Virus record (IMG/VR): IMGVR_UViG_3300012943_000001
Location: 103,743-167,742 of that record
Strand: one strand, 5' to 3'
Length of the DNA stretch: 64,000 bases
DNA from: a virus
Lineage: Duplodnaviria; Heunggongvirae; Uroviricota; Caudoviricetes
Both the position numbers and the translations under genes were made by a program. Below the pieces are notes generated by a model that worked only from the letters and a program-made list of their open reading frames with translations, had not been told where the DNA came from and ran no database searches. This document shows positions 44,156-63,857 of the stretch, piece after piece; within the stretch, counting starts at the first letter, position 1; every line of letters starts with the position of its first letter.

Positions 44156-44479
44156 ATGATTCCCGACAAGCTCCTTAATCTCAGCTATACCAAGCACGCG
44201 ATTAGGGAAGCTTGTTGCGAACGTTTTGGTAGTATAGAGCATCGTCCCAAGAATTTTATAAAGGTGGGTTGCAAGGCGGTGACCGAAAGTGCAGAGAAGC
44301 CTAACGTTATCAAAGCTACCTATATCTATGACGACTGGCGAGATGTCATTTTAGTCATAGACACCATAACTAAAACCGTAATTACAAACTACCTCAAACC
44401 CGCCCAAAACAAAGGCGTATTCAAAGGTCGATTTCGAATTCAGCCAAAGCATGAGCTACAAACTTTTTCTCGACGATGA
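44156..44479 (+). CDS. hypothetical protein
   Basis: 107 aa. Confidence 0.45.
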   Translation: MIPDKLLNLSYTKHAIREACCERFGSIEHRPKNFIKVGCKAVTESAEKPNVIKATYIYDDWRDVILVIDTITKTVITNYLKPAQNKGVFKGRFRIQPKHELQTFSRR

Positions 44480-47860: not shown

Positions 47861-48889
47861 ATGGCAGTGGCAAGAAAATTAGCGTCCATCCAAAAAATTC
47901 TAGACATACTTCCCCATGCAAACGCGGACACGTTAGAGATTGCCCGCGTCTTGGGTTGGAAGGTTTGCGTCAAGAAGGGCGAGTTCAAAGTAGGAGACTA
48001 CTGTGTCTACATGGAGATTGACTCTATGTTGCCGCAGAAACCTGAGTTTGAATTCCTTCGTTCCAAAGGATTCAGGATTAAAACCGTCAGGCTCCGTGGA
48101 GAAGTGTCTCAGGGCATCGCATTCCCACTATCTATCCTTGATGGATATAAGGTTCACGACCAGCATCAGGAGATACCTTACTTAGAAGATTTGGATGTCA
48201 CTGAGCTTATTGGCGTCGTCAAGTACGAGCCCGCAATCCACTTCGCTATTGGCGGAGAGATTAAGGGTCATTTCCCAGAGTTTTTGAAGAAGACGGACGA
48301 GACCCGCATCCAAGCCTTTCCTCGTCTCCTAGACCGCTACAAGGGCGAACGCTTCTACGTTACAGAGAAGTTGGACGGCTCTTCCATGACCGTATATTTC
48401 AAAGACGGTATGTTTGGTATTTGCAGTCGTAACTACGAACTTAGAGAGACTGAAGGTAACGCTCTATGGGCAACCGCAAAGAGGCTCCACCTACCCGAGA
48501 AACTTACGGCTTTTGGTCGCAATATTGCGATTCAGGGTGAGCTTATCGGTCCGGGCATCCAAGGTAACAAATACAAGGTCAAAGAACATCAGTTCCGTCC
48601 GTTCAACGCTATCAACATCAATGAGGCGAAACGTATTGGAGCTGTCGAACTGTTCTCTTTGTGCTCTGCACTAGACCTAGAGCCCGTTCCTGTAATCGAC
48701 TTCTGGTTCGTTCTTAACCATACTGTAGACGATATAGTGTCGTACGCAGAGGGTAAGAGTGCTTTGAATTCAAACACGGAAAGAGAGGGTGTCGTCATTC
48801 GTTACATCGAAGAGAAGTACGACGAAGACATTGGAGACTTGAGCTTCAAAGTCATCAGCCCTAACTTCCTGCTTAAATCAGACGAGTAA
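47861..48889 (+). CDS. RNA ligase, DRB0094/Rnl5 family
   Basis: N-terminal OB LASIQKI...ADTLEIARVLGWKVCVKKGEFKVGDYCVYMEIDS; motif I EKLDGSS. Confidence 0.75.
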   Translation: MAVARKLASIQKILDILPHANADTLEIARVLGWKVCVKKGEFKVGDYCVYMEIDSMLPQKPEFEFLRSKGFRIKTVRLRGEVSQGIAFPLSILDGYKVHDQHQEIPYLEDLDVTELIGVVKYEPAIHFAIGGEIKGHFPEFLKKTDETRIQAFPRLLDRYKGERFYVTEKLDGSSMTVYFKDGMFGICSRNYELRETEGNALWATAKRLHLPEKLTAFGRNIAIQGELIGPGIQGNKYKVKEHQFRPFNAININEAKRIGAVELFSLCSALDLEPVPVIDFWFVLNHTVDDIVSYAEGKSALNSNTEREGVVIRYIEEKYDEDIGDLSFKVISPNFLLKSDE

Positions 48890-52657: not shown

Positions 52658-52733
52658 GGGGATGTAGCTCAGTTGGTAGAGCACCTGCTTTGCAAGCAGA
52701 TTGTCGCAGGTTCGACCCCTGTCATCTCCACCA
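52658..52733 (+). tRNA. tRNA-Ala(TGC)
   Basis: GGGGATGTAGCTCAG...TTCGACC...CTCCACCA; loop TTTGCAA; G3:U70. Confidence 0.8.
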
Positions 52734-52782
52734 TTTCATTGACGCGGTTGTTACTACACGGGTTAGTCAGGAAGTAACATTT

Positions 52783-52858
52783 GGGGGCAAAGCATTGCTG
52801 GCAATGCGTCTGTCTTGCACACAGAAAACTGCGGGTTCGACTCCCGCTGTCTCCACCA
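52783..52858 (+). tRNA. tRNA-Ala(TGC)-like, atypical D-arm
   Basis: GGGGGCA...loop CTTGCAC...TTCGACT...TGTCTCCACCA; G3:U70 present. Confidence 0.5.
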
Positions 52859-52992
52859 ATTTCGTATCAGTGAGTTCAATAGCAAAAGCCGCAAGGTGAA
52901 GTAACTATTATTCATAAGCTCTGTCTGAGCAAGTCGGGTTAAAATCCGAAAGCTGATACAAGCCCGCATATAGGTTGCGGGTGTTAATTTAT

Positions 52993-53067
52993 GGCCCGGT
53001 AGTTTAGAAGTTAGAATACCTGTCTTTCACACAGGAGATGAGGGAGCGTTACCCTCTCGGGCTACCA
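52993..53067 (+). tRNA. tRNA-Glu(TTC)-like, unusual T-loop
   Basis: Loop CTTTCAC; D-loop TAGAAGTTAG as in Glu; T-loop AGCGTTA non-canonical. Confidence 0.45.
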
Positions 53068-53150
53068 TTTATATGACGGCGTAGAGGTTCGGTATTACTA
53101 CGACTCGTAGATACCGTCATTAGCTTGAGATTAGATACCTCAAGCGTTAA

Positions 53151-53240
53151 GGAGAGGTGTCAGAGCGGTTTATTGAGTCTGTCTTGAAAACAGAAGGGTT
53201 GTAAAAGGCCCCGTGGGTTCAAATCCCACCCTCTCCTCCA
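53151..53240 (+). tRNA. tRNA-Ser(TGA), type II
   Basis: GGAGAGG...loop CTTGAAA...long variable arm...TTCAAAT...CCTCTCCTCCA. Confidence 0.75.
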
Positions 53241-53297
53241 TTTTTCTGTTGTGAATGTTCAGCGGGCCTAGCGACCCGCCTATAGAGTGAGCAATGG

Positions 53298-53323
53298 GAA
53301 GCAACTAGCGGGTTGCTTTTTGT
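53298..53323 (+). terminator. rho-independent terminator candidate inside the tRNA array
   Basis: GAAGCAACtagcggGTTGCTT + TTTTG. Confidence 0.5.
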
Positions 53324-53397
53324 GTCAGAAAGGGCACGATATAAAAGACGAATACGATGGAACGCGGTCGTCTCTAAATAATACGGAGTTCCACCAC

Positions 53398-53487
53398 GGA
53401 GAGTTGGGCGAGTGGTTTATGCCGAGACTTTGCTAAAGTCTTGCTGCCGAAAGGTGGCCGGGGGTTCGAATCCCTCATTCTCCGCCA
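53398..53487 (+). tRNA. tRNA-Ser(GCT), type II
   Basis: Loop TTGCTAA, long variable arm, TTCGAAT T-loop, CCA. Confidence 0.7.
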
Positions 53488-53491
53488 ATTT

Positions 53492-53567
53492 GGTTGTATA
53501 GTGTAAAGGTCGCATTGGTAGATTGTCAATCTACAGGTCGGGGTTCAACTTCCCCGTACAACCGCCA
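53492..53567 (+). tRNA. tRNA-Asp(GTC)
   Basis: Loop TTGTCAA; TTCAACT T-loop; ...CAACCGCCA. Confidence 0.7.
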
Positions 53568-53573
53568 ATTTAT

Positions 53574-53647
53574 GGTTCCATCGTTCAACGGATAGGACAG
53601 CATCCTTCTAAGTTGCATATGGGGGTTCGATTCCCTCTGGAACTACC
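53574..53647 (+). tRNA. tRNA-Arg(TCT)
   Basis: Loop CTTCTAA, stem GCATC/GTTGC (one U.U); TTCGATT. Confidence 0.65.
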
Positions 53648-53652
53648 ATTTA

Positions 53653-53728
53653 TAGAGTCATCGTTCAACGGATAGGACTTAAGTTTCCTAAACTTAGTAT
53701 CAGGGTTCGATTCCCTGTGACTCTACCA
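53653..53728 (+). tRNA. tRNA-Arg(CCT)
   Basis: Stem TAAGT/ACTTA, loop TTCCTAA; TTCGATT; ACCA. Confidence 0.7.
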
Positions 53729-53738
53729 TTCAGTTTAT

Positions 53739-53814
53739 GGACGATTAGCACAGCGGCTAATGCACCTGCTTTACACGCAGGCTACCGGGGGTTCGAGTCC
53801 GTCATCGTCTACCA
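53739..53814 (+). tRNA. tRNA-Val(TAC)
   Basis: Loop TTTACAC; TTCGAGT; ...CGTCTACCA. Confidence 0.7.
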
Positions 53815-53926
53815 TTTAGGTTTGCTCACCAGCCTTTGTAATAGTGAGTCTTTTGATGATTAAGGTGAAAATCATCCAGTATACATAGTGGATTATGTCA
53901 TCGTCTTCTTTACGATAAAAGAAAAT

Positions 53927-54001
53927 GGGTTGTAAGCATAGGTGGCGATGCTCTAGGCTCTTAACCTTGAGAACGGGGTTCGATTCCCCGACAACCCACC
54001 A
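53927..54001 (+). tRNA. tRNA-Lys(CTT)
   Basis: GGGTTGT...loop CTCTTAA...TTCGATT...ACAACCCACCA. Confidence 0.65.
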
Positions 54002-54005
54002 TTTT

Positions 54006-54078
54006 GACGCGTTAGCCAAGCGGCAAGGCGGCTCTCTGCAAAAGGGTCTAGACTGGTTCGACTCCAGTACGTGTCTCC
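54006..54078 (+). tRNA. tRNA-Cys(GCA)
   Basis: Loop CTGCAAA; GGTTCGACTCC; discriminator U + CCA as in Cys. Confidence 0.7.
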
Positions 54079-54125
54079 AATTATGAATTATAAGGAAAGA
54101 GAAAATAGAAACGCAGAATAGTTAT

Positions 54126-54199
54126 TGGCCTATGATGTAATGGTAGCGTCTTCGCTTGATAGGCGAATGGTTAGGGTTCGATTCCCTGTAGGCCAACCA
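54126..54199 (+). tRNA. tRNA-Ile(GAT)
   Basis: Stem TTCGC/GCGAA, loop TTGATAG; TTCGATT; ...GGCCAACCA. Confidence 0.65.
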
Positions 54200-54274
54200 G
54201 TTTATGACTCGACACCGTTGTGGCGAAAACCTTTTTGAAGGTTAATAACTCGCTCTTCGCTTTAGAGTCTCTTT

Positions 54275-54351
54275 GGAAATATAGCTCAACTGGTTAGAGC
54301 AGCATCCTTTTAAGTTGTTGGTTGTGGGTTCGAGTCCCGCTATTTCCACCA
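54275..54351 (+). tRNA. tRNA-Lys(TTT)
   Basis: GGAAATATAGCTCAACTGG...loop CTTTTAA...TTCGAGT...TATTTCCACCA. Confidence 0.7.
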
Positions 54352-54484
54352 ATTTCCGTTAGTAGTAACACCCCTATAATTAGACGAACCTTAAGTCATC
54401 GCTCTTTTTGAAGCTGGGACTACGTGTTTACTCGTAGTAAATAGTCTCGTGTGGAAACGAGTAGCTACGACGGAATTAGTTTAT

Positions 54485-54558
54485 GGACCTTTAGTGTAAT
54501 GTAGCACGAGAACCTTTGAAGTTCTCCAGTGTAGGTTCAAGTCCTACGGGGTCTGCCA
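54485..54558 (+). tRNA. tRNA-Gln(TTG)
   Basis: Stem AGAAC/GTTCT, loop CTTTGAA; discriminator G; TTCAAGT. Confidence 0.6.
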
Positions 54559-54563
54559 ATTTT

Positions 54564-54637
54564 GGGTTTATGGTGTAATGGCTGCACAGCGTCCTTTTAA
54601 GTCGTATGTCACGGTTCGAGTCCGTGTAGACCCACCA
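54564..54637 (+). tRNA. tRNA-Lys(TTT), second divergent copy
   Basis: Stem GCGTC/GTCGT (U.U), loop CTTTTAA; TTCGAGT; ACCA. Confidence 0.55.
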
Positions 54638-54643
54638 ATTTAT

Positions 54644-54718
54644 TGTTCTATTGTGTAATGGTTAGCACGGCATCCTTTGAAGTTGCTTGTCCTCGTTCGA
54701 ATCGAGGTAGAACAGCCA
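54644..54718 (+). tRNA. tRNA-Gln(TTG), second copy (U1:A72, G73)
   Basis: TGTTCTA...loop CTTTGAA...TTCGAAT...TAGAACAGCCA. Confidence 0.65.
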
Positions 54719-54813
54719 GTCTCCAACGGCGGGTAGGCCCGTCAAACAATATAGGAAGTCCTAACAAAACATATATCAGAAGGAGTAGGTGAAATCTTCT
54801 GAGCTTCCACTAT

Positions 54814-54888
54814 GCAAGTGTCGTCCAATGGATAGGACATCAGATTACGAATCTGAGAACGGGGGTTCGACTCCCTCCACTTGTACCA
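54814..54888 (+). tRNA. tRNA-Arg(ACG)
   Basis: Stem TCAGA/TCTGA, loop TTACGAA; TTCGACT; ACCA. Confidence 0.65.
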
Positions 54889-54894
54889 ATTTAT

Positions 54895-54970
54895 GGATAC
54901 GTGAGATAATGGAAGTCTGCTTGTCTTCGAAACAAGTTCTATGTAGGTTCGAGTCCTACCGTGTCCACCA
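54895..54970 (+). tRNA. tRNA-Arg(TCG)
   Basis: Stem CTTGT/ACAAG, loop CTTCGAA; TTCGAGT. Confidence 0.6.
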
Positions 54971-55114
54971 ATTTGCGGTCATACCGCAGCGTTTAGTAGT
55001 AATAGTTGCGAAGCAAAGTTCAATGCCGCATGTTAAAGTCAAAGTCTTCTTTGTAAAGATGATGAGCCCAGTACGGGTAATGTGCGAAACGTTTAAGCTA
55101 GACGTAGAATTTAT

Positions 55115-55209
55115 AGAGGGGTCGCATAGTTGGCCTAGTGCGTTCGCTTGGAAAGCGAATGGTCGGTTAAAAACCCGGCCCGCGAGTTCGAATCTCGCTC
55201 CCTCTGCCA
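55115..55209 (+). tRNA. tRNA-Ser(GGA), type II
   Basis: Loop TTGGAAA; long variable arm; TTCGAAT; ...CCCTCTGCCA. Confidence 0.65.
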
Positions 55210-55219
55210 AGTTTCTTAT

Positions 55220-55306
55220 GGAGATGACGCCGCAATTGGTAGCGGTATTCGGCTGTAAACCGAACGCCTTCGGGCACTGTGGGTTCGAATCCCTCCAGCT
55301 CCACCA
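55220..55306 (+). tRNA. tRNA-Tyr(GTA), type II
   Basis: Loop CTGTAAA; variable hairpin GCC-TTCG-GGC; one acceptor mismatch. Confidence 0.6.
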
Positions 55307-55311
55307 TTTAT

Positions 55312-55397
55312 GGGAGTCATGACAATCGGCTAGTCGCTTCGCTGTAAACGAAGTAACCCGCGAAGGGTGGCAGGTTCAATTCCTGCGGCTCCCACCA
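55312..55397 (+). tRNA. tRNA-Tyr(GTA), second divergent copy
   Basis: Stem CTTCG/CGAAG, loop CTGTAAA; variable ACCC-GCGA-AGGGT; TTCAATT. Confidence 0.6.
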
Positions 55398-55404
55398 AGT
55401 TTAT

Positions 55405-55479
55405 AGGGTGTTCGTCCAATTGGTAGGACAACTGTCTCCAAAATAGTGAATCTCGGTTCAAGTCCGAGGCACCCTGCCA
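55405..55479 (+). tRNA. tRNA-Trp(CCA)
   Basis: Loop CTCCAAA; discriminator G; TTCAAGT. Confidence 0.65.
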
Positions 55480-55558
55480 CCTTCCGACGCCCGTCTATAG
55501 ACTCGTCTATAGCTTGCGAAGAAGTTTGTGCGTTTGGGTTCGCCTTAAAAAGCCCTAT

Positions 55559-55633
55559 GGGATGGTAGCTCCAATGTAGAGCAGATGCCTGAAGAGCATC
55601 GTGTTGTCGGTTCAAGTCCGACCCTTCCCACCA
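55559..55633 (+). tRNA. tRNA-Phe(GAA)
   Basis: Stem GATGC/GCATC, loop CTGAAGA; TTCAAGT; ACCA. Confidence 0.65.
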
Positions 55634-55639
55634 ATTTAT

Positions 55640-55716
55640 TATGTCGAACGAACCATCGGTTGGACGACCTGACTGTTAATCAGGTGAAGCAAGTTCGAAC
55701 CTTGCCGACATAGCCA
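55640..55716 (+). tRNA. tRNA-Asn(GTT)-like, atypical D-arm
   Basis: Stem CCTGA/TCAGG, loop CTGTTAA; TTCGAAC; GCCA end; D-stem poorly paired. Confidence 0.4.
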
Positions 55717-55722
55717 TTTTAT

Positions 55723-55799
55723 TCCGCGTTAGCTCAGTTGGCAGTAGCGAGTGTCTGTTAAACACTAGGTCGTACGTTCGAACCGTACACGCGGAGCCA
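55723..55799 (+). tRNA. tRNA-Asn(GTT)
   Basis: TCCGCGTTAGCTCAGTTGG...loop CTGTTAA...TTCGAAC...ACGCGGAGCCA. Confidence 0.75.
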
Positions 55800-55839
55800 A
55801 ATTTCAGTTGAAAAATTAACGAGTCCTGTTAATATCAGG

Positions 55840-56391
55840 ATGTCGGTTCAATCAGATAGGGTCAAACTTTGGAGAAAACAAACCAAGCTACGTATCGTTC
55901 AGGCGATGGGTGGAAAGTGTCAGTGTTGCGGATACAACAAATGTGTAGACGCCTTAGAGATTCATCACCTAGACCCAGAGGAGAAGTCCTTTACGGTCTC
56001 TGCATTAAGAGCGAATCACGGAAGCTGGGACTCCATAGTGAAAGAACTTAGAAAGTGTGTAATGCTTTGCGGCATCTGTCACGCAGAGTACCACGCGGGC
56101 ATGAGAGAAATTCCCGCAGACGCCCAAAGATTCAACGAAGAATACGTTGACTACAAAGCGTTGGGCAAAGAAAAGAGTTTCTGCCCAATTTGTAAAGAAG
56201 AGAAAGAGGAGTTCAACAAAACATGCTCGTACAAGTGTGCGGCTGTATACAAGGCTCCAATAGATTGGTCTAAGTACGACTTGAAGAAAATGTACGTGGA
56301 CGAAAAGAAAACTCAAACAGAGATTGGCACAATAGTTGGCCTGTCTGATGTTGCGGTTAGTAAGCGACTTAAAAAGTTGGGTCTCAAATAA
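55840..56391 (+). CDS. HNH homing-type endonuclease
   Basis: CQCCGYNKCVDALEIHHLDP...CGICHAEYH; inserted between tRNA genes. Confidence 0.7.
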   Translation: MSVQSDRVKLWRKQTKLRIVQAMGGKCQCCGYNKCVDALEIHHLDPEEKSFTVSALRANHGSWDSIVKELRKCVMLCGICHAEYHAGMREIPADAQRFNEEYVDYKALGKEKSFCPICKEEKEEFNKTCSYKCAAVYKAPIDWSKYDLKKMYVDEKKTQTEIGTIVGLSDVAVSKRLKKLGLK

Positions 56392-56398
56392 TTTTTAT

Positions 56399-56477
56399 AC
56401 GAACGTAGTGCTAGTCTGGTTAAGCGACTCGATTTGGAATCGAGATTTCGCGGGTTCAAATCCCGCCGTTCGTACCA
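56399..56477 (+). tRNA. tRNA-Pro(TGG)
   Basis: Stem CTCGA/TCGAG, loop TTTGGAA; TTCAAAT; ...CGTTCGTACCA. Confidence 0.55.
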
Positions 56478-56496
56478 TTTGTTAGTGTTAGTATAT

Positions 56497-56574
56497 CCGT
56501 CATTAGCGTAATCTGGCTATCGCGTTTCGTTTGGGGCGAAGAGACTGCTGGTTCGAATCCAGCATGGCGGACCA
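56497..56574 (+). tRNA. tRNA-Pro(TGG), second copy
   Basis: Loop TTTGGGG; TTCGAAT; ...ATGGCGGACCA; long D-loop. Confidence 0.5.
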
Positions 56575-56579
56575 TTTAT

Positions 56580-56652
56580 TCACTCGTAGTTTAGTATAAA
56601 ATTCCCTCGCTTTAGAGGGTGACACGCGGCTTATAACCCGTCGAGTGAGCCA
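56580..56652 (+). tRNA. tRNA-like gene with a 6-nt anticodon loop (GCTTTA)
   Basis: Perfect acceptor TCACTCG/CGAGTGA + GCCA; stem CCCTC/GAGGG closes a 6-nt loop; no GG in the D-loop. Confidence 0.35.
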
Positions 56653-56717
56653 TTCTTGCAAGACCGTGAAGCTTGAGGTTGCAACCTTGAGTGAGTGACG
56701 GAAAGCGAAACGTACGT

Positions 56718-56790
56718 GGTGAAGTAACCCAGTGGAAGAGGTAGGCCCGTTAAAGGGCCTCAAGCGTTGGTTCGAATCCAACCTTTGCCG
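56718..56790 (+). tRNA. tRNA-like gene with a 6-nt anticodon loop (GTTAAA), no encoded CCA
   Basis: Acceptor GGTGAAG/CTTTGCC (2 G.U); stem GGCCC/GGGCC; T-arm GTTGG-TTCGAAT-CCAAC. Confidence 0.35.
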
Positions 56791-56875
56791 TATGCGTACT
56801 GAGTAGCATAACTTTATCTAGTGGTTCGCCACTTAGAACCTTCAGGTCTCCATGAAGCAAAACCGGAGACATTAT

Positions 56876-56952
56876 GGGCGTGTGGCGTAATTGGTAAACG
56901 CGTTTGACTCAAAATCAAAATTCTGTCGGTTCGAGTCCGACCTCGCCTACCA
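56876..56952 (+). tRNA. tRNA with anticodon CAA (Leu-like decoding) but a class I body
   Basis: Stem TTTGA/TCAAA, loop CTCAAAA; TTCGAGT; ...CTCGCCTACCA; one acceptor mismatch. Confidence 0.45.
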
Positions 56953-56956
56953 CTTT

Positions 56957-57087
56957 GGGGAGTTAGTTAAAAACTAATCATCCACTTCGACATTTCTCTG
57001 GCAACAGTAGCTATGAAGAGGATTACATCGGAAAAACAAATGCCTGTAAAGCGTTAATAGGAGGTTCGAATCCTCCACTCCCCACCA
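56957..57087 (+). tRNA. elongated tRNA-like gene (~131 nt) with an internal insertion
   Basis: GGGGAGT...(approx 70-nt insert)...GGAGGTTCGAATCCTCC ACTCCCC A CCA; perfect 7-bp acceptor. Confidence 0.35.
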
Positions 57088-57150
57088 ATTTACTTTTCAA
57101 CGCTCGAAGTCCTACGGGACAAGGGCCGAAAAGAAACAGAAAGGATAACA

Positions 57151-57237
57151 ATGGAATTCGTAACTATTGCTATCGCTGCTTATGCGGTTATCGGTTTGCT
57201 ATATCAAATGGCAAAAGCGTACCCGGCAGTTAAATAA
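57151..57237 (+). CDS. small hydrophobic peptide (28 aa)
   Basis: RBS AGGATAACA-ATG; MEFVTIAIAAYAVIGLLYQMAKAYPAVK; followed by an intrinsic terminator. Confidence 0.3.
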   Translation: MEFVTIAIAAYAVIGLLYQMAKAYPAVK

Positions 57238-57246
57238 GAAAACAAA

Positions 57247-57278
57247 TGGGGGCGGCTCTGTAATGGGGTCGCCCCTTT
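57247..57278 (+). terminator. rho-independent terminator after the small peptide ORF
   Basis: GGGGGCGGCtctgtaatggggtCGCCCC + TTTCTATT. Confidence 0.5.
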
Positions 57279-57282
57279 CTAT

Positions 57283-57358
57283 TGATGAATGGTGTAACTG
57301 GCAACACGCTTGATTCTGACTCAAGAGACTCTAGGTTCAACTCCTAGTTCATCAGCCA
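57283..57358 (+). tRNA. tRNA-Gln(CTG) (U1:A72, G73)
   Basis: TGATGAA...stem CTTGA/TCAAG, loop TTCTGAC...TTCAACT...TTCATCAGCCA. Confidence 0.7.
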
Positions 57359-57364
57359 ATTTAT

Positions 57365-57442
57365 GGACGCGTAGCTCAGTTATGTAAGAGCATCGGCTTG
57401 AAACACCGAGGGTCGGCGACTCAGCATCGCCCACGTCCACCA
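57365..57442 (+). tRNA. tRNA-Phe(GAA)-like, non-canonical T-loop
   Basis: GGACGCGTAGCTCAG...loop TTGAAAC; T-loop CTCAGCA; ACCA. Confidence 0.4.
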
Positions 57443-57448
57443 GTTTAT

Positions 57449-57563
57449 GGGCGTCTAGTGTTGAATCCGTAACTCGTACGGAAGTTGAAATACAAGGAAG
57501 CACATCGCGTAGTTGAAGAACGATGACCGCGAAGGTACGGGTTCAAATCCCGAACGTCCACCA
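57449..57563 (+). tRNA. elongated tRNA-like gene (~115 nt)
   Basis: GGGCGTC...CGTAC[~55 nt]GTACG...GGGTTCAAATCCCG AACGTCC A CCA. Confidence 0.3.
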
Positions 57564-57709
57564 CTTTTAGCGACCGCACCAGCTTACGTGAAGATTCGTA
57601 CATTTCGAAGCGTGGACGCACGTGTAGGACCGCAGGCCCCTATATCTTTCGGTATAGAGATTTCCCTGAGACGGGCCGCTAAACAATTTCCAGTAGTCAC
57701 AGTCAGACA

Positions 57710-57781
57710 TTCATCGTAGCTTAATGGTTAAGCAATTGTCTCAAACACAGTATATTGTAGGTTCAAATCCTACCGATACCG
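57710..57781 (+). tRNA. tRNA-like (loop CTCAAAC), weak acceptor, no CCA
   Basis: D-arm GCTT-AATGGTTA-AAGC; T-arm GTAGG-TTCAAAT-CCTAC; acceptor only 4 bp. Confidence 0.3.
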
Positions 57782-57823
57782 CAAGGTATTACCTGTCTGG
57801 CAAATTTTCTCTGGAAAATCTTT

Positions 57824-57898
57824 GGTTGTATAGCTCAATGGTTGAGCAATCTCTTGATAAGGGATAGGTTGTCGGTTCGAACCCGGCTGCAACCACCA
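57824..57898 (+). tRNA. tRNA-Ile(GAT), second copy
   Basis: GGTTGTATAGCTCAATGG...loop TTGATAA...TTCGAAC...TGCAACCACCA. Confidence 0.7.
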
Positions 57899-57943
57899 AT
57901 TCTCTGTTGGCTTGACGGAGCTAAAAATATTGAGCCTTCTTAT

Positions 57944-58021
57944 GGTGTCGTAGGTGTAATTGGCTTTGCATACTAGACTGTGAATCTGGGGGAACGAATT
58001 CGAATTTCGTACGACACACCA
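57944..58021 (+). tRNA. tRNA-His(GTG) with encoded G-1
   Basis: G-GTGTCGT...loop CTGTGAA...TTCGAAT...ACGACACACCA. Confidence 0.7.
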
Positions 58022-58026
58022 TTTAT

Positions 58027-58103
58027 GGCCGTTTAGCCCAATTGGCAGAGGCGTCTGCCTTAGAAGCAGAATGTTGAGGGTTCGAGTCCCTTGGCGGCTA
58101 CCA
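58027..58103 (+). tRNA. tRNA with anticodon TAG (Leu-like decoding), short variable arm
   Basis: Stem TCTGC/GCAGA, loop CTTAGAA; TTCGAGT; ...GGCGGCTACCA. Confidence 0.5.
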
Positions 58104-58267
58104 CTTTAAGGTACTAAAATGTTTTTACTACCTACAGATACTAAAACTATGGAGGATGCTATGACAATGCTAAACGCGAAAGAGAGCAAGCACATCACGG
58201 GCTTGACAATCGGAAGTTAAAGAGAGTTAGGGTTAGAGAACACCATCATAGAGATTACGATTTCTAT

Positions 58268-58624
58268 TTGAGTTATGGAGATATGCTTAAACGCTTTCCC
58301 GTAACTAAGCAAGGCGACCCAGAAGGCTACGACCCAATTCAATGCTACGTCCTAATCGACTCGCATGGAGAACGGAGCGGGCCTCACCCTTGCAATGACC
58401 CTGACACTTTAGACAAAGTTTTAAGAGGCAAAGAGAACGTAAACCTGCAAATCAAAATGTGGGTTGAGTCAGTAATGGACAGCACTCTTTGGCCTGAAGA
58501 AGTGAAAGAGTATACGAAAGATTATCCTGAGTGGGTATTCAAATCGTTCCTCAATCAATTGCATAGAGAGATAGTTAAGAAGATAGGATTCGTTCCTACC
58601 TTTATGAAAGTTTCGCCGCAGTGA
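58268..58624 (+). CDS. hypothetical protein
   Basis: 118-aa ORF (TTG start) between tRNA genes. Confidence 0.45.
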   Translation: MSYGDMLKRFPVTKQGDPEGYDPIQCYVLIDSHGERSGPHPCNDPDTLDKVLRGKENVNLQIKMWVESVMDSTLWPEEVKEYTKDYPEWVFKSFLNQLHREIVKKIGFVPTFMKVSPQ

Positions 58625-58635
58625 TGCGGCTTTGT

Positions 58636-58712
58636 GGCCGGATGACGGAATTGGCATACGTATTGGTCTAAGAAGCCAAGTTTTGTGGGTTCGACTCCCA
58701 CTTCGGCTACCA
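58636..58712 (+). tRNA. tRNA, anticodon read as AAG (uncertain)
   Basis: Stem TTGGT/GCCAA, loop CTAAGAA; TTCGACT; ...TTCGGCTACCA. Confidence 0.4.
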
Positions 58713-58717
58713 CTTTT

Positions 58718-58809
58718 GGGAGTGTAATGTAATGTAGCATCGCACGTTTTATAAACGTGGTGCAGTAGATAACTGCCGAGTATGGGTTCAAGTCCCTTCG
58801 CTCCTACCA
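58718..58809 (+). tRNA. type II tRNA with anticodon read as TAT (unusual)
   Basis: Stem CACGT/ACGTG, loop TTTATAA; variable hairpin GCAGT-AGATA-ACTGC; TTCAAGT; ACCA. Confidence 0.4.
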
Positions 58810-58810
58810 T

Positions 58811-58953
58811 GAGAGTGAGGTGTAATGGTTGCACGTTGACGATAGCAGGCGAAAATATGAGTGAAGCTGGCTAATAACCAACCGCTCCTCAAAGCATAGC
58901 TGTAAGTCTTGAAACATGTCAAAGGAATGGGTCCGAATCCCACGCTCTCTCCA
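58811..58953 (+). tRNA. elongated tRNA-like gene (~143 nt)
   Basis: GAGAGTG...(approx 80-nt insert)...TGGGTCCGAATCCCA CGCTCTC T CCA. Confidence 0.3.
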
Positions 58954-59047
58954 ATTTTGTGAGGGTAGGATAGGTTGTTGCAAATGATAATGTCTTTAGG
59001 TAACTTGCCGCGTAAAGAGTCCTATCTCGAATCACAATCAATTTTAT

Positions 59048-59122
59048 GGCGATATCTTCTAATGGCTAGGAAGGCTGGTTCTCAACCAGATAATCGGGGT
59101 TCGATTCCCCGTATCGCTACCA
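59048..59122 (+). tRNA. tRNA-Glu(CTC)-like
   Basis: GGCGATA...loop TTCTCAA (4-bp stem)...TTCGATT...TATCGCTACCA. Confidence 0.45.
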
Positions 59123-59337
59123 ATTTATGGCGAAGTGCGAGAAAGCTTTAAGTCGCGGTTAAAGTGCAGTGCTTAATAAGCCACTTACGTCACCAATTTA
59201 TAAATACACTCTAGTATCAAATTTCCAGACAGCATAACGAGCGGTTCGACTCCGCCCGAGCATCCCTAAGAAGATGCCGAGGGAACGCTGGAGAACATTT
59301 CTAACTTGAAAAATAGTTAGAGACGGATATAATTCGG

Positions 59338-59721
59338 ATGAAACAAAAGATTTTGAAACTCCTATCCGAAGGAAAGAGTCAGAAGGAAGTGGTAAGACTG
59401 TTGGGTTGCTCATCGGCGACGGTCTGGTATCATTCCTCAGATAAAGCGAAAGCAATAGTTCTACGGAACAACGCAAAGAACAAAACCGACTCTAAGAGAA
59501 GATTGAAAGAAGAGTTCGGAGGAAAGTGTATGTGTTGTGGATACAACAAAAGCTTCAGAGCGTTACACTTTCATCATAAAGACCCGTCTAAAAAGGACGA
59601 CGATATCAATAGCCTTGTAAGTAGAGGTCAGATTACACAAGCACGAGAAGAAGCAAAGAAATGCGTTCTTGTCTGTGCAAACTGCCACGCGGAAATCCAC
59701 GAAGGTATCCGCACCATATAA
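59338..59721 (+). CDS. HNH homing-type endonuclease (paralog of 55840..56391)
   Basis: CMCCGYNKSFRALHFHHKDP...CANCHAEIH. Confidence 0.7.
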   Translation: MKQKILKLLSEGKSQKEVVRLLGCSSATVWYHSSDKAKAIVLRNNAKNKTDSKRRLKEEFGGKCMCCGYNKSFRALHFHHKDPSKKDDDINSLVSRGQITQAREEAKKCVLVCANCHAEIHEGIRTI

Positions 59722-59864
59722 TTTCAGTAGTTACGTAGAGACTTTCATCGTCTATTAAACGAGTGTTTGTGAGGTTCGAATCCCACTCGCCCCACCATTT
59801 ATGGGGCGATACGCAAATGGTAAAGCGGCTAAAATCGTCTCTGCAATTTTTCTCTGAAAACTAA

Positions 59865-59940
59865 GCTGTAGAAGTTCAAAAGGTTGAACGACTCATTGGT
59901 AATGAGTAGGCAGCGGGTTCGATTCCCGCCTATAGCTCCA
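59865..59940 (+). tRNA. tRNA-Thr(GGT)
   Basis: GCTGTAG...GTTC/GAAC D-stem...stem ACTCA/TGAGT, loop TTGGTAA...TTCGATT...CTATAGCTCCA. Confidence 0.7.
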
Positions 59941-59988
59941 CTTTCAACTTGAAGATTACGCCCCTTTGGCGTATAATCTTTAAGACAT

Positions 59989-60064
59989 GCACCAGTATCA
60001 TAGCGGCTAATGAGCTACTTTGCCAAAGTAGATATCGCGGGTTCGAATCCCGCCTGATGCACCA
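59989..60064 (+). tRNA. tRNA-Gly(GCC)
   Basis: Stem CTACT/AGTAG, loop TTGCCAA; TTCGAAT; ...CTGATGCACCA. Confidence 0.65.
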
Positions 60065-60068
60065 ATTT

Positions 60069-60332
60069 ATGATTAAAAGACTAATAGGCCGATTTCAAAT
60101 CTGGCGTTTCAAACGTCAAAACCCAAAGAAAGCGATTGACGTAGAGATGCCCAATTCCGCTCCAGTTGTTGGCCGCTTTGAACTTAAGCCTTCAGGTCTA
60201 GATATTAATTGGCTATCAGAACCTACGCAAAGATTTCCTTACAAAGAGTCTTCACTTAACGAGTGGAAATTTCAGTGGGAAAAAGAGCGTATGAGATTGA
60301 TTAAGGTTGACCAACCTGAAAAAACTTCGTAA
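60069..60332 (+). CDS. hypothetical protein (88 aa)
   Basis: Start moved to the ATG (MIKRLIGRF) immediately after tRNA-Gly; the track ORF start lies inside the tRNA. Confidence 0.45.
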   Translation: MIKRLIGRFQIWRFKRQNPKKAIDVEMPNSAPVVGRFELKPSGLDINWLSEPTQRFPYKESSLNEWKFQWEKERMRLIKVDQPEKTS

Positions 60333-60522
60333 CATGGCCGAGCGTGAATATACAGAAGTTGGAGACGGAGTTTACTTAGGTAAGACCGGCCCTATAGAAG
60401 AAGGAGACATCGCTCCGCCAAATTCTAAAAGTCGTCGATGGGTTACGCAAAAGGGTCTAGAAGACGCGGGTGGACAATTCAAAGACGGTAAGAAAGTTCC
60501 TCCTACAGAGACAGACATATAA
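60307..60522 (+). CDS. hypothetical small protein
   Basis: 71 aa, TTG start, overlaps the upstream ORF end. Confidence 0.35.
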   Translation: MTNLKKLRNMAEREYTEVGDGVYLGKTGPIEEGDIAPPNSKSRRWVTQKGLEDAGGQFKDGKKVPPTETDI

Positions 60523-60530
60523 CATTTTTC

Positions 60531-60605
60531 GCGGGATTCATATATCGGCTATTATGTGAGTTTTCCAAACTTGACAGGTGGGTTCGACTCCCTCATCCCG
60601 CACCA
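60531..60605 (+). tRNA. tRNA-Gly(TCC)
   Basis: GCGGGAT...stem TGAGT/ACTTG, loop TTTCCAA...TTCGACT...ATCCCGCACCA. Confidence 0.55.
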
Positions 60606-60609
60606 TTTC

Positions 60610-60685
60610 GCATCGGTAACTCAATAGGTAGAGTGTCTGTGCTCCACACAGAAGGCTGCGGGTTCAATTCCTGTCCGGTGCTCCA
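60610..60685 (+). tRNA. tRNA with an ambiguous anticodon loop (GCTCCAC; TCC or 5-nt loop CTCCA)
   Basis: GCATCGG...ACTC/GAGT D-stem...TTCAATT...CCGGTGCTCCA. Confidence 0.4.
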
Positions 60686-60692
60686 ATTTCAA

Positions 60693-60768
60693 GCTGACAT
60701 AGCACAACTGGCGGTGCGTTTCTTTCGTAAAGAAAAGGTTGAGGGTTCAAATCCCTCTGTTAGCTCCA
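60693..60768 (+). tRNA. tRNA-Thr(CGT)
   Basis: Stem TTTCT/AGAAA, loop TTCGTAA; TTCAAAT; ...TGTTAGCTCCA. Confidence 0.65.
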
Positions 60769-60774
60769 TTTTAT

Positions 60775-60851
60775 GCAGGTTCTAGGGATGCTGGCTTCCC
60801 GTTTAGGCTCATAACCTTTATGTCGTGGTTCAATTCCATATCCTGCTTCCA
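60775..60851 (+). tRNA. tRNA-Met/Ile2(CAT)
   Basis: Loop CTCATAA; TTCAATT; ...TCCTGCTTCCA. Confidence 0.55.
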
Positions 60852-60854
60852 TTT

Positions 60855-61001
60855 ATGATAGAGTTATCTAGGACAGAAATCATTCGTTTCATTTGCGATA
60901 GAAGAGCTGTACATGAAGGAAGAATGACAAAAGAAGTCTTTTACGCAAAGTACAAAGAGTACGTTGACGAAAGGCCGCACCTTAAGAAACGATATAAATA
61001 A
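60855..61001 (+). CDS. small ORF (~48 aa) between tRNA genes
   Basis: MIELSRTEIIRFICDRRAVHEGRMTKEVFYAKYKEYVDERPHLKKRYK; manual. Confidence 0.25.
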   Translation: MIELSRTEIIRFICDRRAVHEGRMTKEVFYAKYKEYVDERPHLKKRYK

Positions 61002-61004
61002 TTT

Positions 61005-61080
61005 GCCGCTGAAGTTCATATGGGTGAACGCCTCACTTGTAATGAGGATGTAGTCAGTTCAAATCTGACCTGTGGCTCCA
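61005..61080 (+). tRNA. tRNA-Thr(TGT)
   Basis: GCCGCTG...stem CCTCA/TGAGG, loop CTTGTAA...TTCAAAT...CTGTGGCTCCA. Confidence 0.65.
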
Positions 61081-61083
61081 TTT

Positions 61084-61170
61084 GCCGAATTGGCTCAGTG
61101 GCAACAGCACCGCTTTTGTAAAGCGGCGAGGGAAACCTCTACGTCGGTTCGAGTCCGACATTCGGCTCCA
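61084..61170 (+). tRNA. type II Leu-like tRNA, anticodon loop TTTGTAA (assignment uncertain)
   Basis: GCCGAATTGGCTCAGTGG (Leu-like 5' end); variable hairpin GAGG-GAAA-CCTC; TTCGAGT; ...ATTCGGCTCCA. Confidence 0.5.
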
Positions 61171-61539
61171 CTATCTCACTCTCTTTGAGTCTGAGTTCAA
61201 ATTGCGAAAGTTAGGAGTAAGAGAATGACAGTTTGGACACAGTAGTTCTAAATTCTCTTCCCAACTATTTTCTGCGTTACCGTCGATATGATTAACTTCT
61301 AAAGGTACAAGTTGAGTAACGGGATGTTTGGCTGACCAGCCGCACTTGCAGCATTTAGAATTGTATTTCTGAAATAGATACTTACGAACGAATGGTTTTA
61401 TTTTCTTGGTTATTCCTGTCCAACCGATAAGCTCACGAGCTTGCCAAGTCCTGACGCTATTTTCGTAAGTCGTTTTTCCCTGACATTTTAGGGAGCAATA
61501 TTTCTTTTTAGCAGGAGCGTTACAACAGATACAAACCAT
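61171..61539 (-). CDS. HNH endonuclease
   Basis: CPNCH, NHIDGN, multiple Cys pairs; the only clear minus-strand gene, flanking the tRNA array. Confidence 0.65.
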   Translation of the reverse strand: MVCICCNAPAKKKYCSLKCQGKTTYENSVRTWQARELIGWTGITKKIKPFVRKYLFQKYNSKCCKCGWSAKHPVTQLVPLEVNHIDGNAENSWEENLELLCPNCHSLTPNFRNLNSDSKRVR

Positions 61540-63779: not shown

Positions 63780-63857
63780 AGGGTGTTAGCTCAGTTGGTT
63801 TAGAGCGTTTGCCTGTCACGCAAAAGGTCGCGGGTTCGAGTCCCGTACATCCTGCCA
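63780..63857 (+). tRNA. tRNA-Asp(GTC)
   Basis: AGGGTGTTAGCTCAGTTGG...loop CTGTCAC...GGTCGCGGGTTCGAGTCCCGT...ACATCCTGCCA. Confidence 0.75.

Follow-up and report, generated by a model that had tools for sequence, protein, structure and literature searches.

Why does a phage genome carry more than forty tRNA genes side by side, several of them as pairs with the same anticodon and different bodies? This question is raised by a stretch of 64,000 nucleotides (hereafter the window; positions 103,743 to 167,742 of the IMG/VR virus record IMGVR_UViG_3300012943_000001, Caudoviricetes), in which a tRNA array occupies positions 52658-61170. The stretch bears the principal cluster of tRNA genes in an uncultivated jumbo phage; the combination of a tRNA array with RNA repair is already known in giant phages. 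As argued below, the array probably serves as a self-sufficient replacement tRNA pool backed by RNA repair, and its isoacceptor pairs are old.

tRNA genes were called by ARAGORN at the default and at a relaxed threshold, and by a permissive Rfam RF00005 scan of positions 50000-64000. With the default setting, 41 tRNA genes were found, on the plus strand only and spanning exactly 52658-61170. Within the same interval, 44 matches to RF00005 reached the gathering score (29 bits or more). The Rfam scan added four loci that default ARAGORN had missed: 57713-57777, 57945-58018 (His-GTG), 57365-57439 (the second Phe-GAA) and 55641-55711 (the second Asn-GTT, borderline at 29.1 bits). Relaxed ARAGORN recovered the His and the second Phe genes, and added a weak Met-CAT at 60775 and a weak Tyr-like candidate at 57018. 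Together, ARAGORN and Rfam give 45 well-supported tRNA genes and at most 47 candidates. An earlier sequence-only reading of this DNA had described an array of about 50 genes; its coordinates were right and its count was fair. The duplicates that it had listed were also recovered: two genes each for Ala-TGC, Lys-TTT, Tyr-GTA, Pro-TGG, Ile-GAT and Gln-TTG (plus Gln-CTG) and four Arg species by default ARAGORN, and the second Asn-GTT and Phe-GAA by Rfam or relaxed ARAGORN only. The pairs of Gly-TCC and Thr-TGT were missing from it.

An anticodon loop of 7 nt with U33 is found in nearly all of the genes; only 56717 (6-nt loop), 60610 (C33) and the truncated element at 57713 depart from it. The CCA end is encoded by all default ARAGORN calls but one, and also by the His gene and the second Phe gene. 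The spacers are 12 nt or shorter in 18 of 45 cases. A TTTAT leader directly precedes most tRNA genes, including those with no tRNA just upstream, and T stands at position -1 in 37 and at position -3 in 38 of 46 genes. The tRNA region runs past the window end, with Asp-GTC at 63780 followed by Val-GAC, two Met-CAT and Leu-TAA with ORFs interspersed; this distal region corresponds to L006 10335-15836 (window equivalents about 63780-69281), and its order is the same in a related fragment (L011). Including these five downstream genes, the set covers all 20 amino acids and, by wobble, essentially every sense codon. The codon usage of the phage genes is nearly even, without strongly preferred codons. 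No intron was found in the tRNA-like stretches of the array when ARAGORN was run with introns allowed, and no CTA, TCA or TTA (suppressor) anticodon occurred among the tRNA calls. Stop-codon recoding was considered and rejected, as the ORFs are long and dense under code 11.

The paired genes were then compared with each other. Identities between same-anticodon copies were 0.59 (Thr-TGT), 0.61 (Asn), 0.63 (Ala), 0.65 (Gln-TTG, Pro and Ile-GAT), 0.66 (Lys-TTT), 0.67 (Phe, Gly-TCC and Asp) and 0.68 (Tyr). For the background, 858 pairs of genes with different anticodons had a mean identity of 0.609 (sd 0.049, maximum 0.753). The duplicates are therefore divergent and not identical, as had been claimed for them, and they stand at the level seen between unrelated tRNAs. 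Since the identities lie at background, these pairs are not recent in-array copies. Moreover, both copies of Ala-TGC, Gln-TTG and Lys are retained in several relatives. Thus, recent copying within the array does not account for the same-anticodon duplicates, which by these comparisons are old paralogues or separate acquisitions.

The relatives were reached by protein-cluster look-ups from homologues of the RNA ligase encoded at 47861-48889. Six related contigs, with 67-75% protein identity, were obtained (L002, L003, L004, L007, L009 and L010), three of them 208-222 kb long. The upstream gene order Rnl1, cREC, phosphoesterase, kinase, ligase and cupin is common to all six, and in all six the tRNA array begins a few kb downstream, in the same order as in the window. 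The common order starts Ala-Ala-Glu-Ser...Asp-Arg(TCT)-Arg(CCT)-Val(TAC)...Lys(CTT)-Cys-(Met)-Ile(GAT)-Lys-Gln-Lys-Gln and continues, after the second Gln, with Arg(ACG)-Arg(TCG)-Ser(GGA)-Tyr-Trp-Phe. Conserved order was also seen in a seventh fragment (L011), which keeps the distal Asp-Val-Met-Met-Leu(TAA) set. This shared order indicates that the array was inherited within a jumbo-phage clade. Beyond these contigs, megablast of the array against deposited phages gave single tRNA-Ala matches only and no close relative, and the best tblastn matches of the polymerase did not exceed 32% identity (about 30%). Searches of IMG/VR, JGI metagenomes and GTDB genomes with ligase peptides, the Ser-GGA tRNA and a two-Ala-arm pattern gave no relatives. 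An ORF of 212 aa downstream had no homologue on the large relatives.

Among 209 reciprocal-best ortholog pairs from the seven genomes, the stems differed at 25-33% of sites, yet 96-98% of the positions still paired: 25% of sites and 97.4% pairing in the acceptor stem, 25% and 98.5% in the T stem, and 33% and 95.6% in the anticodon stem, the most divergent stem (0.325 vs. 0.252). Less than 10% of the loop sites differed. In the Lys family alignment, 96.1% of the cells of the cloverleaf were paired against 72.3% in shuffles; changes on both sides were found in 15 of 21 pairs, and slid controls fell to 35-49%. Because the stems covary among relatives, the tRNA genes should be functional and the duplicates old. 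As judged from this covariation, the array genes are working tRNA genes under structural selection.

The RNA ligase and polynucleotide kinase module that had been noticed beside the array is real: it comprises an Rnl1-like ligase, a cREC protein, an HD protein, a metallophosphoesterase, a Pnkp-type kinase and an NgrRnl-type ligase (Table 1), and it is kept in the relatives. The Rnl1-like ligase matched the T4 Rnl1 structure 2c5u (4.5e-5) and stands at the same position in L002-L004, L009 and L010; since its score lies below the NCBIfam equivalog cut-off, it is a member of the family and not an equivalog. The second ligase matched the Naegleria RNA ligase 5cot (3e-68) and scored 204 bits with TIGR02306, above the cut-off. 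The kinase is a stand-alone protein of 159 aa, nearer in the PDB to the kinase domain of C. thermocellum Pnkp (4gp6, 1.7e-9) than to T4 PNK (1ly1, 8e-5). No HAD-type 3'-phosphatase is fused to it, and thus the repair module is not of the T4 architecture; by these matches it is like bacterial Pnkp and the toolkit of jumbo phages, and unlike T4 Pnkp. The limits of the metallophosphoesterase were taken from the gene calls of the contig, and no PDB sequence matched it. Downstream of the main array, at a distance of about 11 kb, there is also an RlaP nucleotidyltransferase (L006 18918-19760). The jumbo-phage RNA-repair toolkit described by Iyer et al. consists of own tRNAs, Rnl1/Rnl2-class ligases, a kinase, phosphoesterases, cREC and RlaP (PMC7824862), and cREC has been tied to RNA ligases in jumbo phages (PMC7824862).

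An unusual anticodon stem, GCATC...GTTG[C/T] with U30 opposite U40, is carried by Arg-TCT (53574), Lys-TTT (54275) and Gln-TTG (54644). In a fourth member, the Lys-TTT gene at 54564 (GCGTC...GTCGT), the U30·U40 mismatch persists and the 29-41 pair shows a compensating change. Thus, four genes with three body types bear this arm in the window; it also occurs in both L007 Lys-TTT genes and in the L010 Gln-TTG. The mismatch had been taken as a hint of nuclease evasion. We scanned bacteria and archaea, one genome per species, for the pattern CAGCRTCCTTNNAAGTYG followed by a T-loop, and obtained at least 120 loci (L013-L132). All 117 ARAGORN-callable loci among the matches listed were tRNA-Lys(TTT). 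Among the 120 matches listed, 63 were from Verrucomicrobiota (Opitutaceae, Opitutus, Akkermansia and others), 42 from Bifidobacteriaceae, 11 from other Actinomycetota and 4 from others. Since the arm is, in the loci listed, that of cellular tRNA-Lys(UUU), it is probably not a phage escape variant. It is the normal tRNA-Lys(UUU) arm of certain bacteria, and the phylum of the host is probably among them, as the sequence matches suggest.

The first Lys-TTT gene of the window (Lys 'a') is 0.83 identical to Opitutaceae tRNA-Lys and has the Verrucomicrobiota-type variable loop ...AAGTTGTTGGTT... in common with it. For a sugar transferase encoded just past the window end (Bac_transf, L006 13751-14374), the best matches with a name came from Opitutales, Opitutaceae and Verrucomicrobia, with identities of about 50%; this gene is not on the large relatives. 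From these two items, the host probably belongs to Verrucomicrobiota/Opitutales. In the relative L004, the Lys-UUU core matches E. coli tRNA-Lys. Thus, by sequence comparison, Lys arms within the clade resemble cellular Lys arms of different phyla.

How these anticodons arose can be followed among the relatives. The body of Lys 'a' is orthologous in five genomes (the window, L007, L002, L003 and L004), but its positions 26-44 read AGCATCCTTTTAAGTTGT in the window and L007 and TTCTGACTCTTAATCAGC in L002-L004. By this alignment, Lys 'a' underwent a whole-arm replacement, and the anticodon changed from CTT to TTT with it. The second copies of Lys-TTT and Gln-TTG have the D arm, the anticodon arm and the variable loop in common, and the window Lys copy is 0.80 identical to the L010 Gln. 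Their acceptor ends differ (G1-C72 and A73 in Lys, U1-A72 and G73 in Gln), and the acceptor stem of the window Gln copy is that of the L010 Gln at 19088, whose arm is GCGTC/GTCGC. As read from the aligned genes, this Gln derives from Lys by duplication, then a single-base anticodon change and remodelling of the identity elements. The Arg-TCT gene of the window matches the neighbouring Arg-CCT family in its D and T arms and is not orthologous to the 77-nt Arg-TCT of the relatives. In four relatives, the gene that corresponds by position to Leu-CAA (56876) is an orthologous Leu-TAG; the two have one acceptor stem in common and are 0.78-0.84 identical. Genes with different anticodons can thus be closer than isoacceptors (Leu CAA vs. 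TAG, 0.84; Lys CTT vs. TTT, 0.75-0.87).

The sequence-only reading had explained the three genes with the GCATC stem by duplication within the array followed by anticodon switching. The switching part holds, for Lys CTT/TTT, Leu TAG/CAA, the second Lys and Gln copies and Arg. Whole-gene duplication is retained for the second Lys and Gln copies and was rejected for Arg-TCT and Lys 'a', which have only the arm in common. Thus, anticodon switching is real and, to judge from these genes, often moves the anticodon arm as a unit and not the whole gene. This resembles tRNA recruitment by anticodon shift ('remolding') in that different-anticodon genes are closer than isoacceptors and the acceptor and discriminator bases are refitted. 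It is unlike classic remolding of cells and organelles in that the whole anticodon arm is often exchanged, and this inside a phage array.

The arm was also looked for in viruses. A sample of 80 IMG/VR loci (L133-L212), 79 of them with a tRNA call, contained the arm in 42 Lys-TTT genes and 37 genes with other U34 anticodons: Gly-TCC 14, Thr-TGT 9, Ile-TAT 5, Glu-TTC 4, Gln-TTG 2, Arg-TCT 2 and Val-TAC 1. The acceptor stems of these non-Lys carriers fit their respective identities. From this sample, putting the Lys arm to use with other U34 anticodons appears to be a habit of viruses.

On the preferred reading, a pool of replacement tRNAs backed by repair, the array would be transcribed as polycistronic precursors and cut by host RNase P/E. 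The pool would keep phage translation going when host tRNAs run low, whether they are depleted by tRNA-cleaving host defences or by phage-induced shut-off. The conserved upstream module, with its kinase, end-healing phosphoesterases and two RNA ligases, would re-seal cut tRNAs. New isoacceptors are gained in the array by three routes: duplication plus a single-base anticodon change, exchange of the entire anticodon arm (17-18 nt), and recombination with cell-type tRNAs, one of the cell-type arms being the tRNA-Lys(UUU) arm with U30·U40. Homing-endonuclease genes are scattered in the array (HNH), PD-(D/E)XK ORFs are found in the arrays of the relatives, and such enzymes may be linked to isoacceptor turnover. 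Several points weigh against this reading. The window holds no virion gene, so that phage status is judged from the PHROG matches and the rIIB-like genes of the relatives: many PHROG matches (polymerase, HNH and many phage-only families) and a DnaE-type polymerase were found, and a T4 rIIB-like gene is present in the relatives. The comparison with relatives covers the genes up to about 57.4 kb plus the distal Asp-Val-Met-Met-Leu set, and the host assignment draws solely on the Lys tRNA arm and the one sugar-transferase gene. In addition, the atypical or degenerate genes at 56717, 57018, 57713 and 60775, and the second Gly-TCC gene with its C33, may fail in decoding.

The pairs might instead owe their existence mainly to nuclease evasion, one copy being insensitive to a host anticodon or anticodon-stem nuclease, and the array would then be chiefly a counter-defence. 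The principle is established. In T5, variants of tRNA-Lys, Thr and Asn neutralise PARIS; AriB cuts the anticodon stem between positions 40 and 41 within U36-A-A-U-C-A41, and the changes U39A and A41C resist it (PMC12409363). Phage tRNAs also show anticodon-loop changes at nuclease sites (PMC10264068), and the demonstrated mechanism is one of nuclease-insensitive replacement tRNAs, not decoys (PMC10264068, PMC12409363). In our clade, Lys (3-4 genes), Asn (2-3) and Gln (2-3) have expanded more than other families, segment 36-41 of the Lys and Asn genes varies widely between relatives, loop position 32, 37 or 38 differs in 7 of 11 duplicate pairs, and a conserved RNA-repair module adjoins. The anticodon stem also diverges most among orthologs, although this higher figure lacks a cellular baseline and may reflect weaker constraint. 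However, the Lys-UUU arms agree with those of cellular tRNAs from the probable host phylum, the opposite of the predicted escape mutations; matching Verrucomicrobiota and Bifidobacteriaceae, the arm would fail a test for insensitivity if the host is one of the Verrucomicrobiota. Moreover, a duplicated anticodon is found in 12 of 20 amino acids, Ala, Gly, Phe, Pro and Ile among them, and His and every Arg species are single. Thus, the enrichment for classic nuclease targets, to which the duplicates had been thought to point, is not specific, and we consider evasion a possible but doubtful main driver. On a further account, the copies of a pair suit the synthetases and modification enzymes of different hosts, one copy being cell-like and recently acquired and the other coming from an old phage lineage, and the exchange of arms follows changes of host. 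Many pairs do have one copy that is much nearer to the general tRNA model (Rfam bits: Ala 68 vs. 59, Lys 69 vs. 58, Asn 55 vs. 29, Phe 56 vs. 42, Asp 69 vs. 48), and the Lys-UUU arms are of the Verrucomicrobiota type in the window and L007 and of the E. coli type in L004. The pattern was compared with cellular tRNAs for Lys only, however; we regard this account as plausible but rather unlikely.

That the array and its duplicates tune tRNA supply to the codon and amino-acid demand of the phage is favoured by the complete set and by a gene number that loosely tracks usage (Leu 4, Lys 3 and Thr 4; Cys, Trp and His 1 each). Yet with the nearly even codon usage there is no strongly preferred codon that would need compensation, and dosage predicts recent near-identical copies where the pairs stand at background identity. 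Furthermore, Val (7.3%) and Glu (6.8%) have no duplicated anticodon whereas Gln (3.0%) has three genes, and tuning of supply is in our view quite improbable. The least credit is given to the view that the redundancy is largely unselected turnover by homing endonucleases and recombination, with many copies decaying. HNH ORFs in or next to the array (55840, 59338 and 61171 on the minus strand), the PD-(D/E)XK ORFs of the relatives, the tRNA remnants (57445-57565, 58813-58955, 59125-59198 and 59722-59864) and the weak candidates at 57018 and 60775 speak for it, but relatives retain Ala, Gln-TTG and Lys each in both copies, and the stems of these genes are intact and compensated. Homing-endonuclease churn certainly contributes, but does not explain the long-term retention of intact pairs.

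Table 1. Coordinates of the tRNA genes, tRNA-like elements and associated protein genes (window positions; letters a and b mark copies with the same anticodon).
Feature	Position	Strand	Caller or match	Rfam bits	Remarks
Rnl1-family RNA ligase	43042..44154	+	Pfam RNA_lig_T4_1 2e-16, 60.9 bits (cut-off 28.3)		
cREC cyclic-phosphate-processing domain protein	44451..44813	+	Pfam cREC_REC 3e-22		
HD-domain phosphohydrolase	44810..45262	+	Pfam HD 2e-4; NCBIfam SpoT/RelA HD region 5e-12		
Weak metallophosphoesterase	45264..45938	+	Pfam Metallophos 3e-4, barely above cut-off		candidate 3'-end healing enzyme
Pnkp-type polynucleotide 5'-kinase (P-loop)	45935..46414	+	AAA_33 1e-21; TIGR04075 kinase region 2e-15		
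NgrRnl/DRB0094-type ATP-dependent RNA ligase	47861..48889	+	PHA02142 OB domain 2e-32; RNA_ligase 3e-24		
tRNA-Ala(TGC) a	52658..52733	+	ARAGORN	68.3	L003 ortholog 0.83
tRNA-Ala(TGC) b	52783..52858	+	ARAGORN	58.8	0.63 to copy a; L003 ortholog 0.91
tRNA-Glu(TTC)	52993..53067	+	ARAGORN	51.5	
tRNA-Ser(TGA)	53151..53240	+	ARAGORN	56.3	class II
tRNA-Ser(GCT)	53398..53487	+	ARAGORN	50.1	class II
tRNA-Asp(GTC) a	53492..53567	+	ARAGORN	48.5	
tRNA-Arg(TCT)	53574..53648	+	ARAGORN	54.6	Arg-CCT-type body; Lys-type U30·U40 arm GCATC/GTTGC
tRNA-Arg(CCT)	53654..53728	+	ARAGORN	56.4	
tRNA-Val(TAC)	53739..53814	+	ARAGORN	51.4	
tRNA-Lys(CTT)	53927..54001	+	ARAGORN	52.8	
tRNA-Cys(GCA)	54006..54079	+	ARAGORN	49	orthologs 0.89 in L003, L004
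tRNA-Ile(GAT) a	54126..54199	+	ARAGORN	54.7	
tRNA-Lys(TTT) a	54275..54351	+	ARAGORN	68.7	cell-type U30·U40 arm
tRNA-Gln(TTG) a	54485..54558	+	ARAGORN	50.9	
tRNA-Lys(TTT) b	54564..54637	+	ARAGORN	57.8	arm GCGTC/GTCGT with U30·U40; 0.66 to copy a
tRNA-Gln(TTG) b	54644..54718	+	ARAGORN	54.1	Lys-type U30·U40 arm
tRNA-Arg(ACG)	54814..54888	+	ARAGORN	62.2	
tRNA-Arg(TCG)	54895..54970	+	ARAGORN	57.6	
tRNA-Ser(GGA)	55115..55209	+	ARAGORN	48.4	class II
tRNA-Tyr(GTA) a	55220..55306	+	ARAGORN	38.2	class II
tRNA-Tyr(GTA) b	55312..55397	+	ARAGORN default		class II; Rfam tRNA-Sec model only, below threshold; L002 ortholog 0.90
tRNA-Trp(CCA)	55405..55479	+	ARAGORN	53.4	
tRNA-Phe(GAA) a	55559..55633	+	ARAGORN	56.4	
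tRNA-Asn(GTT) b, marginal	55640..55714	+	Rfam; not an ARAGORN call	29.1	by eye: acceptor TATGTCG/CGACATA, G73, CCA
tRNA-Asn(GTT) a	55723..55799	+	ARAGORN	55.1	
HNH homing-endonuclease-like ORF	55840..56391	+	phrog_35854 HNH endonuclease 7e-32		within array
tRNA-Pro(TGG) a	56399..56477	+	ARAGORN	55.4	
tRNA-Pro(TGG) b	56497..56574	+	ARAGORN	54.5	nearest is L002 Pro-CGG, 0.77
Atypical tRNA-like gene	56717..56791	+	ARAGORN 'tRNA-???'	39.5	6-bp anticodon stem, 6-nt loop, no CCA
tRNA-Leu(CAA)	56876..56952	+	ARAGORN	67.7	77 nt; no long variable arm
Weak Tyr(GTA)-like candidate	57018..57087	+	relaxed ARAGORN only	22.4, sub-gathering	probably degenerate
tRNA-Gln(CTG)	57283..57358	+	ARAGORN	63.2	
tRNA-Phe(GAA) b	57365..57442	+	relaxed ARAGORN	42.1	
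tRNA-like element	57713..57777	+	Rfam	52.1, model positions 4-67	truncated acceptor stem
tRNA-Ile(GAT) b	57824..57898	+	ARAGORN	63.8	
tRNA-His(GTG)	57945..58021	+	relaxed ARAGORN	48	
tRNA-Leu(TAG)	58027..58103	+	ARAGORN	53.9	77 nt
tRNA-Leu(AAG)	58636..58712	+	ARAGORN	52.3	77 nt
tRNA-Ile(TAT)	58718..58809	+	ARAGORN	38.3	92 nt; extra (variable) arm
tRNA-Glu(CTC)	59048..59122	+	ARAGORN	56.4	
HTH-HNH endonuclease-like ORF	59338..59721	+	Pfam HTH_23 2e-5; weak HNH match		within array; 74% DNA identity across 68 nt to HNH ORF at 55909
tRNA-Thr(GGT)	59865..59940	+	ARAGORN	61.9	
tRNA-Gly(GCC)	59989..60064	+	ARAGORN	62.4	
tRNA-Gly(TCC) a	60531..60605	+	ARAGORN	43	
tRNA-Gly(TCC) b	60610..60685	+	ARAGORN	55.9	anticodon loop GCTCCAC (C33)
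tRNA-Thr(CGT)	60693..60768	+	ARAGORN	64.1	
Weak Met(CAT)-like candidate	60775..60847	+	relaxed ARAGORN only		acceptor and T stems poor
tRNA-Thr(TGT) a	61005..61080	+	ARAGORN	51.6	
tRNA-Thr(TGT) b	61084..61170	+	ARAGORN	55.7	87 nt; extra arm; G1-C72, C2-G71 like other Thr genes; fold z-score -2.3 with extra hairpin
HNH endonuclease ORF	61171..61539	-	Pfam HNH 2.6e-4, at cut-off		abuts array end
tRNA-Asp(GTC) b	63780..63857	+	ARAGORN	68.9	first of scattered distal tRNAs

Several genes in Table 1 depart from the usual tRNA architecture. All four Leu tRNAs (CAA, TAG, AAG and the distal TAA at L006 15760-15836) are 77 nt long and lack the long variable arm. Leu-CAA aligns to a class II tRNA-Leu of XacN1 save for an 11-nt deletion of the variable arm, and the short Leu genes are kept in relatives. 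In the 80 IMG/VR loci, 22 of 55 Leu genes were short-armed; the long arm was present in all 30 Ser and all 12 Tyr genes. Ile(TAT) and the second Thr(TGT) possess an extra hairpin in the variable region, the Ile gene folding as a cloverleaf plus this hairpin. Unrelated IMG/VR contigs also contain long genes for Ile-TAT (91-96 nt) and Thr-TGT (88 nt), and the extra-arm loop of Ile is often AGAT(T/A)A. The 6-nt-loop gene (56719-56790) has counterparts at the same place, just before Leu, in L002 (17784-17856) and L003 (18935-19004); in these three genomes it has a 6-bp anticodon stem, the loop [G/A]T[T/C][A/G]AA, no CCA and covarying stems. In the second Gly(TCC), C33 replaces the near-universal U33, yet the gene scores 55.9 bits. 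The tRNA-His (57944-58021) has an encoded G-1 and, at the discriminator position, A73 instead of C73; thus, the usual bacterial G-1:C73 pair cannot form. A phage TadA acting on the A34 anticodons ACG and AAG was also considered, but the deaminase at 38183-38761 fits dCMP-deaminase/ComEB models far better.

The tRNA-like element at 57713-57777 is conserved in L002, with the outer stem GTCAGACA/TGTCTGGC. In the tRNA region only, there are three copies of a left box, CAGTAGNNANNNNNAGACNTTCATCGT, and two of a right box, TGTCTNNCNANTTTTCTCTG (57691-57813, 59725-59864 and 62631-62699; L002 20850-20960). At 57691 the boxes form a long-range stem around the tRNA-like element; at 62631 they are nearly adjacent and an ORF follows. 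They may be a processing or promoter cassette. Four remnant-like stretches without a tRNA call (57445-57565, 58813-58955, 59125-59198 and 59722-59864) show either a TTTAT leader with an acceptor-like 5' end or a T arm with CCA. Those at 58813-58955 and 57445-57565 fold no better than shuffles or form no cloverleaf, and were taken as remnants. For 59722-59864, beside an HNH gene, a permuted tRNA with the 3' half upstream of the 5' half was considered; remnants between repeated boxes, as at 57691 and 62631, were preferred. A hydrophobic ORF of 28 aa, MEFVTIAIAAYAVIGLLYQMAKAYPAVK, lies in the array (57152-57276); after it comes a terminator-like hairpin of 13 bp (57248-57276), the strongest in the region.

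The source contig (ENA ERZ27256383 k141_2352669) is 205,482 bp long. Besides the DnaE-type polymerase and the HNH endonucleases, the window encodes a ClpB-like ATPase and NAD-salvage enzymes. Near a nicotinate phosphoribosyltransferase and an NAD synthetase there is a PARP-like protein, which has WGR, PARP regulatory and PARP catalytic domains (15463-16866, 25571-28545). A PP2C phosphatase, a large protein with a weak protein-kinase domain and two adjacent R2K-clade ATP-grasp proteins were also observed (21266-25166, 35900-37525).

Among known systems, the tRNA cluster of T5 has HNH endonuclease genes embedded in it. As here, that cluster is large and includes the AriB targets Lys-UUU, Thr-UGU and Asn-GUU; its protective tRNAs differ from the host at the cleavage site (U39A, A41C), whereas the Lys-UUU arms of our phage match the likely host phylum. 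In T4, the tRNA region holds the homing endonuclease SegB. An Rnl1-family ligase and a polynucleotide kinase lie near the tRNA cluster in T4 and in this phage alike and, in T4, repair PrrC-cleaved tRNA-Lys. However, T4 has 8 tRNAs and this phage more than 50, the kinase here is separate and nearest to the bacterial Pnkp kinase domain, the second ligase is of the NgrRnl type instead of Rnl2, and 3'-end healing would be performed by the metallophosphoesterase, cREC and HD proteins in place of the HAD phosphatase fused to the T4 kinase. For T5, the replacement-tRNA function has been demonstrated by experiment (PMC12409363). Mycobacteriophages of cluster C1 (about 33 tRNAs per phage) are likewise tRNA-rich without a codon-usage rationale, and nuclease insensitivity has been proposed for them (PMC10264068); that proposal compares a known host and known VapC/MazF sites, whereas here the cellular comparison concerns Lys only and the arm is cell-like. 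The closest likeness is to the arrays of jumbo and huge phages (Xanthomonas phage XacN1; PMC7824862), with dozens of tRNAs in one region of a genome above 200 kb and a toolkit of Rnl1/Rnl2-class ligases, kinase, phosphoesterases, cREC and downstream RlaP. This phage differs in that it has no close relative among deposited phages and that all of its Leu tRNAs lack the long variable arm.

The locus thus provides a well-resolved example, from an undescribed jumbo-phage clade, of a full tRNA set with an RNA-repair island, and Verrucomicrobiota, the probable host phylum, have few known phages. It shows how a phage tRNA repertoire changes: by arm replacement, by single-base anticodon shifts with remodelled identity elements, and by borrowing of a cell-type arm. 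The arm replacement and identity remodelling are useful detail and not surprising in principle. An apparent nuclease-escape oddity in a stem can be a normal tRNA feature of the host, and therefore claims of evasion need the host tRNA for comparison. It is conceivable, though we put it forward tentatively and think it rather unlikely, that the tRNA-Lys(UUU) arm GC[A/G]UC-CUUUUAA-GU[U/C]G[U/C] with the conserved U30·U40 is a portable module in phages. If its reuse reflects selection and not ancestry, a single privileged anticodon arm would serve phages as the basis of new U34 decoders. Selection might act through better decoding with an under-modified U34 or position 37, or through a particular relation to a host factor that reads the anticodon stem. 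The arm-less tRNA-Leu and the extra-arm Ile-UAU and Thr-UGU, which recur in other viral contigs, would fit the same idea, namely that phages have architecture rules of their own for tRNA.

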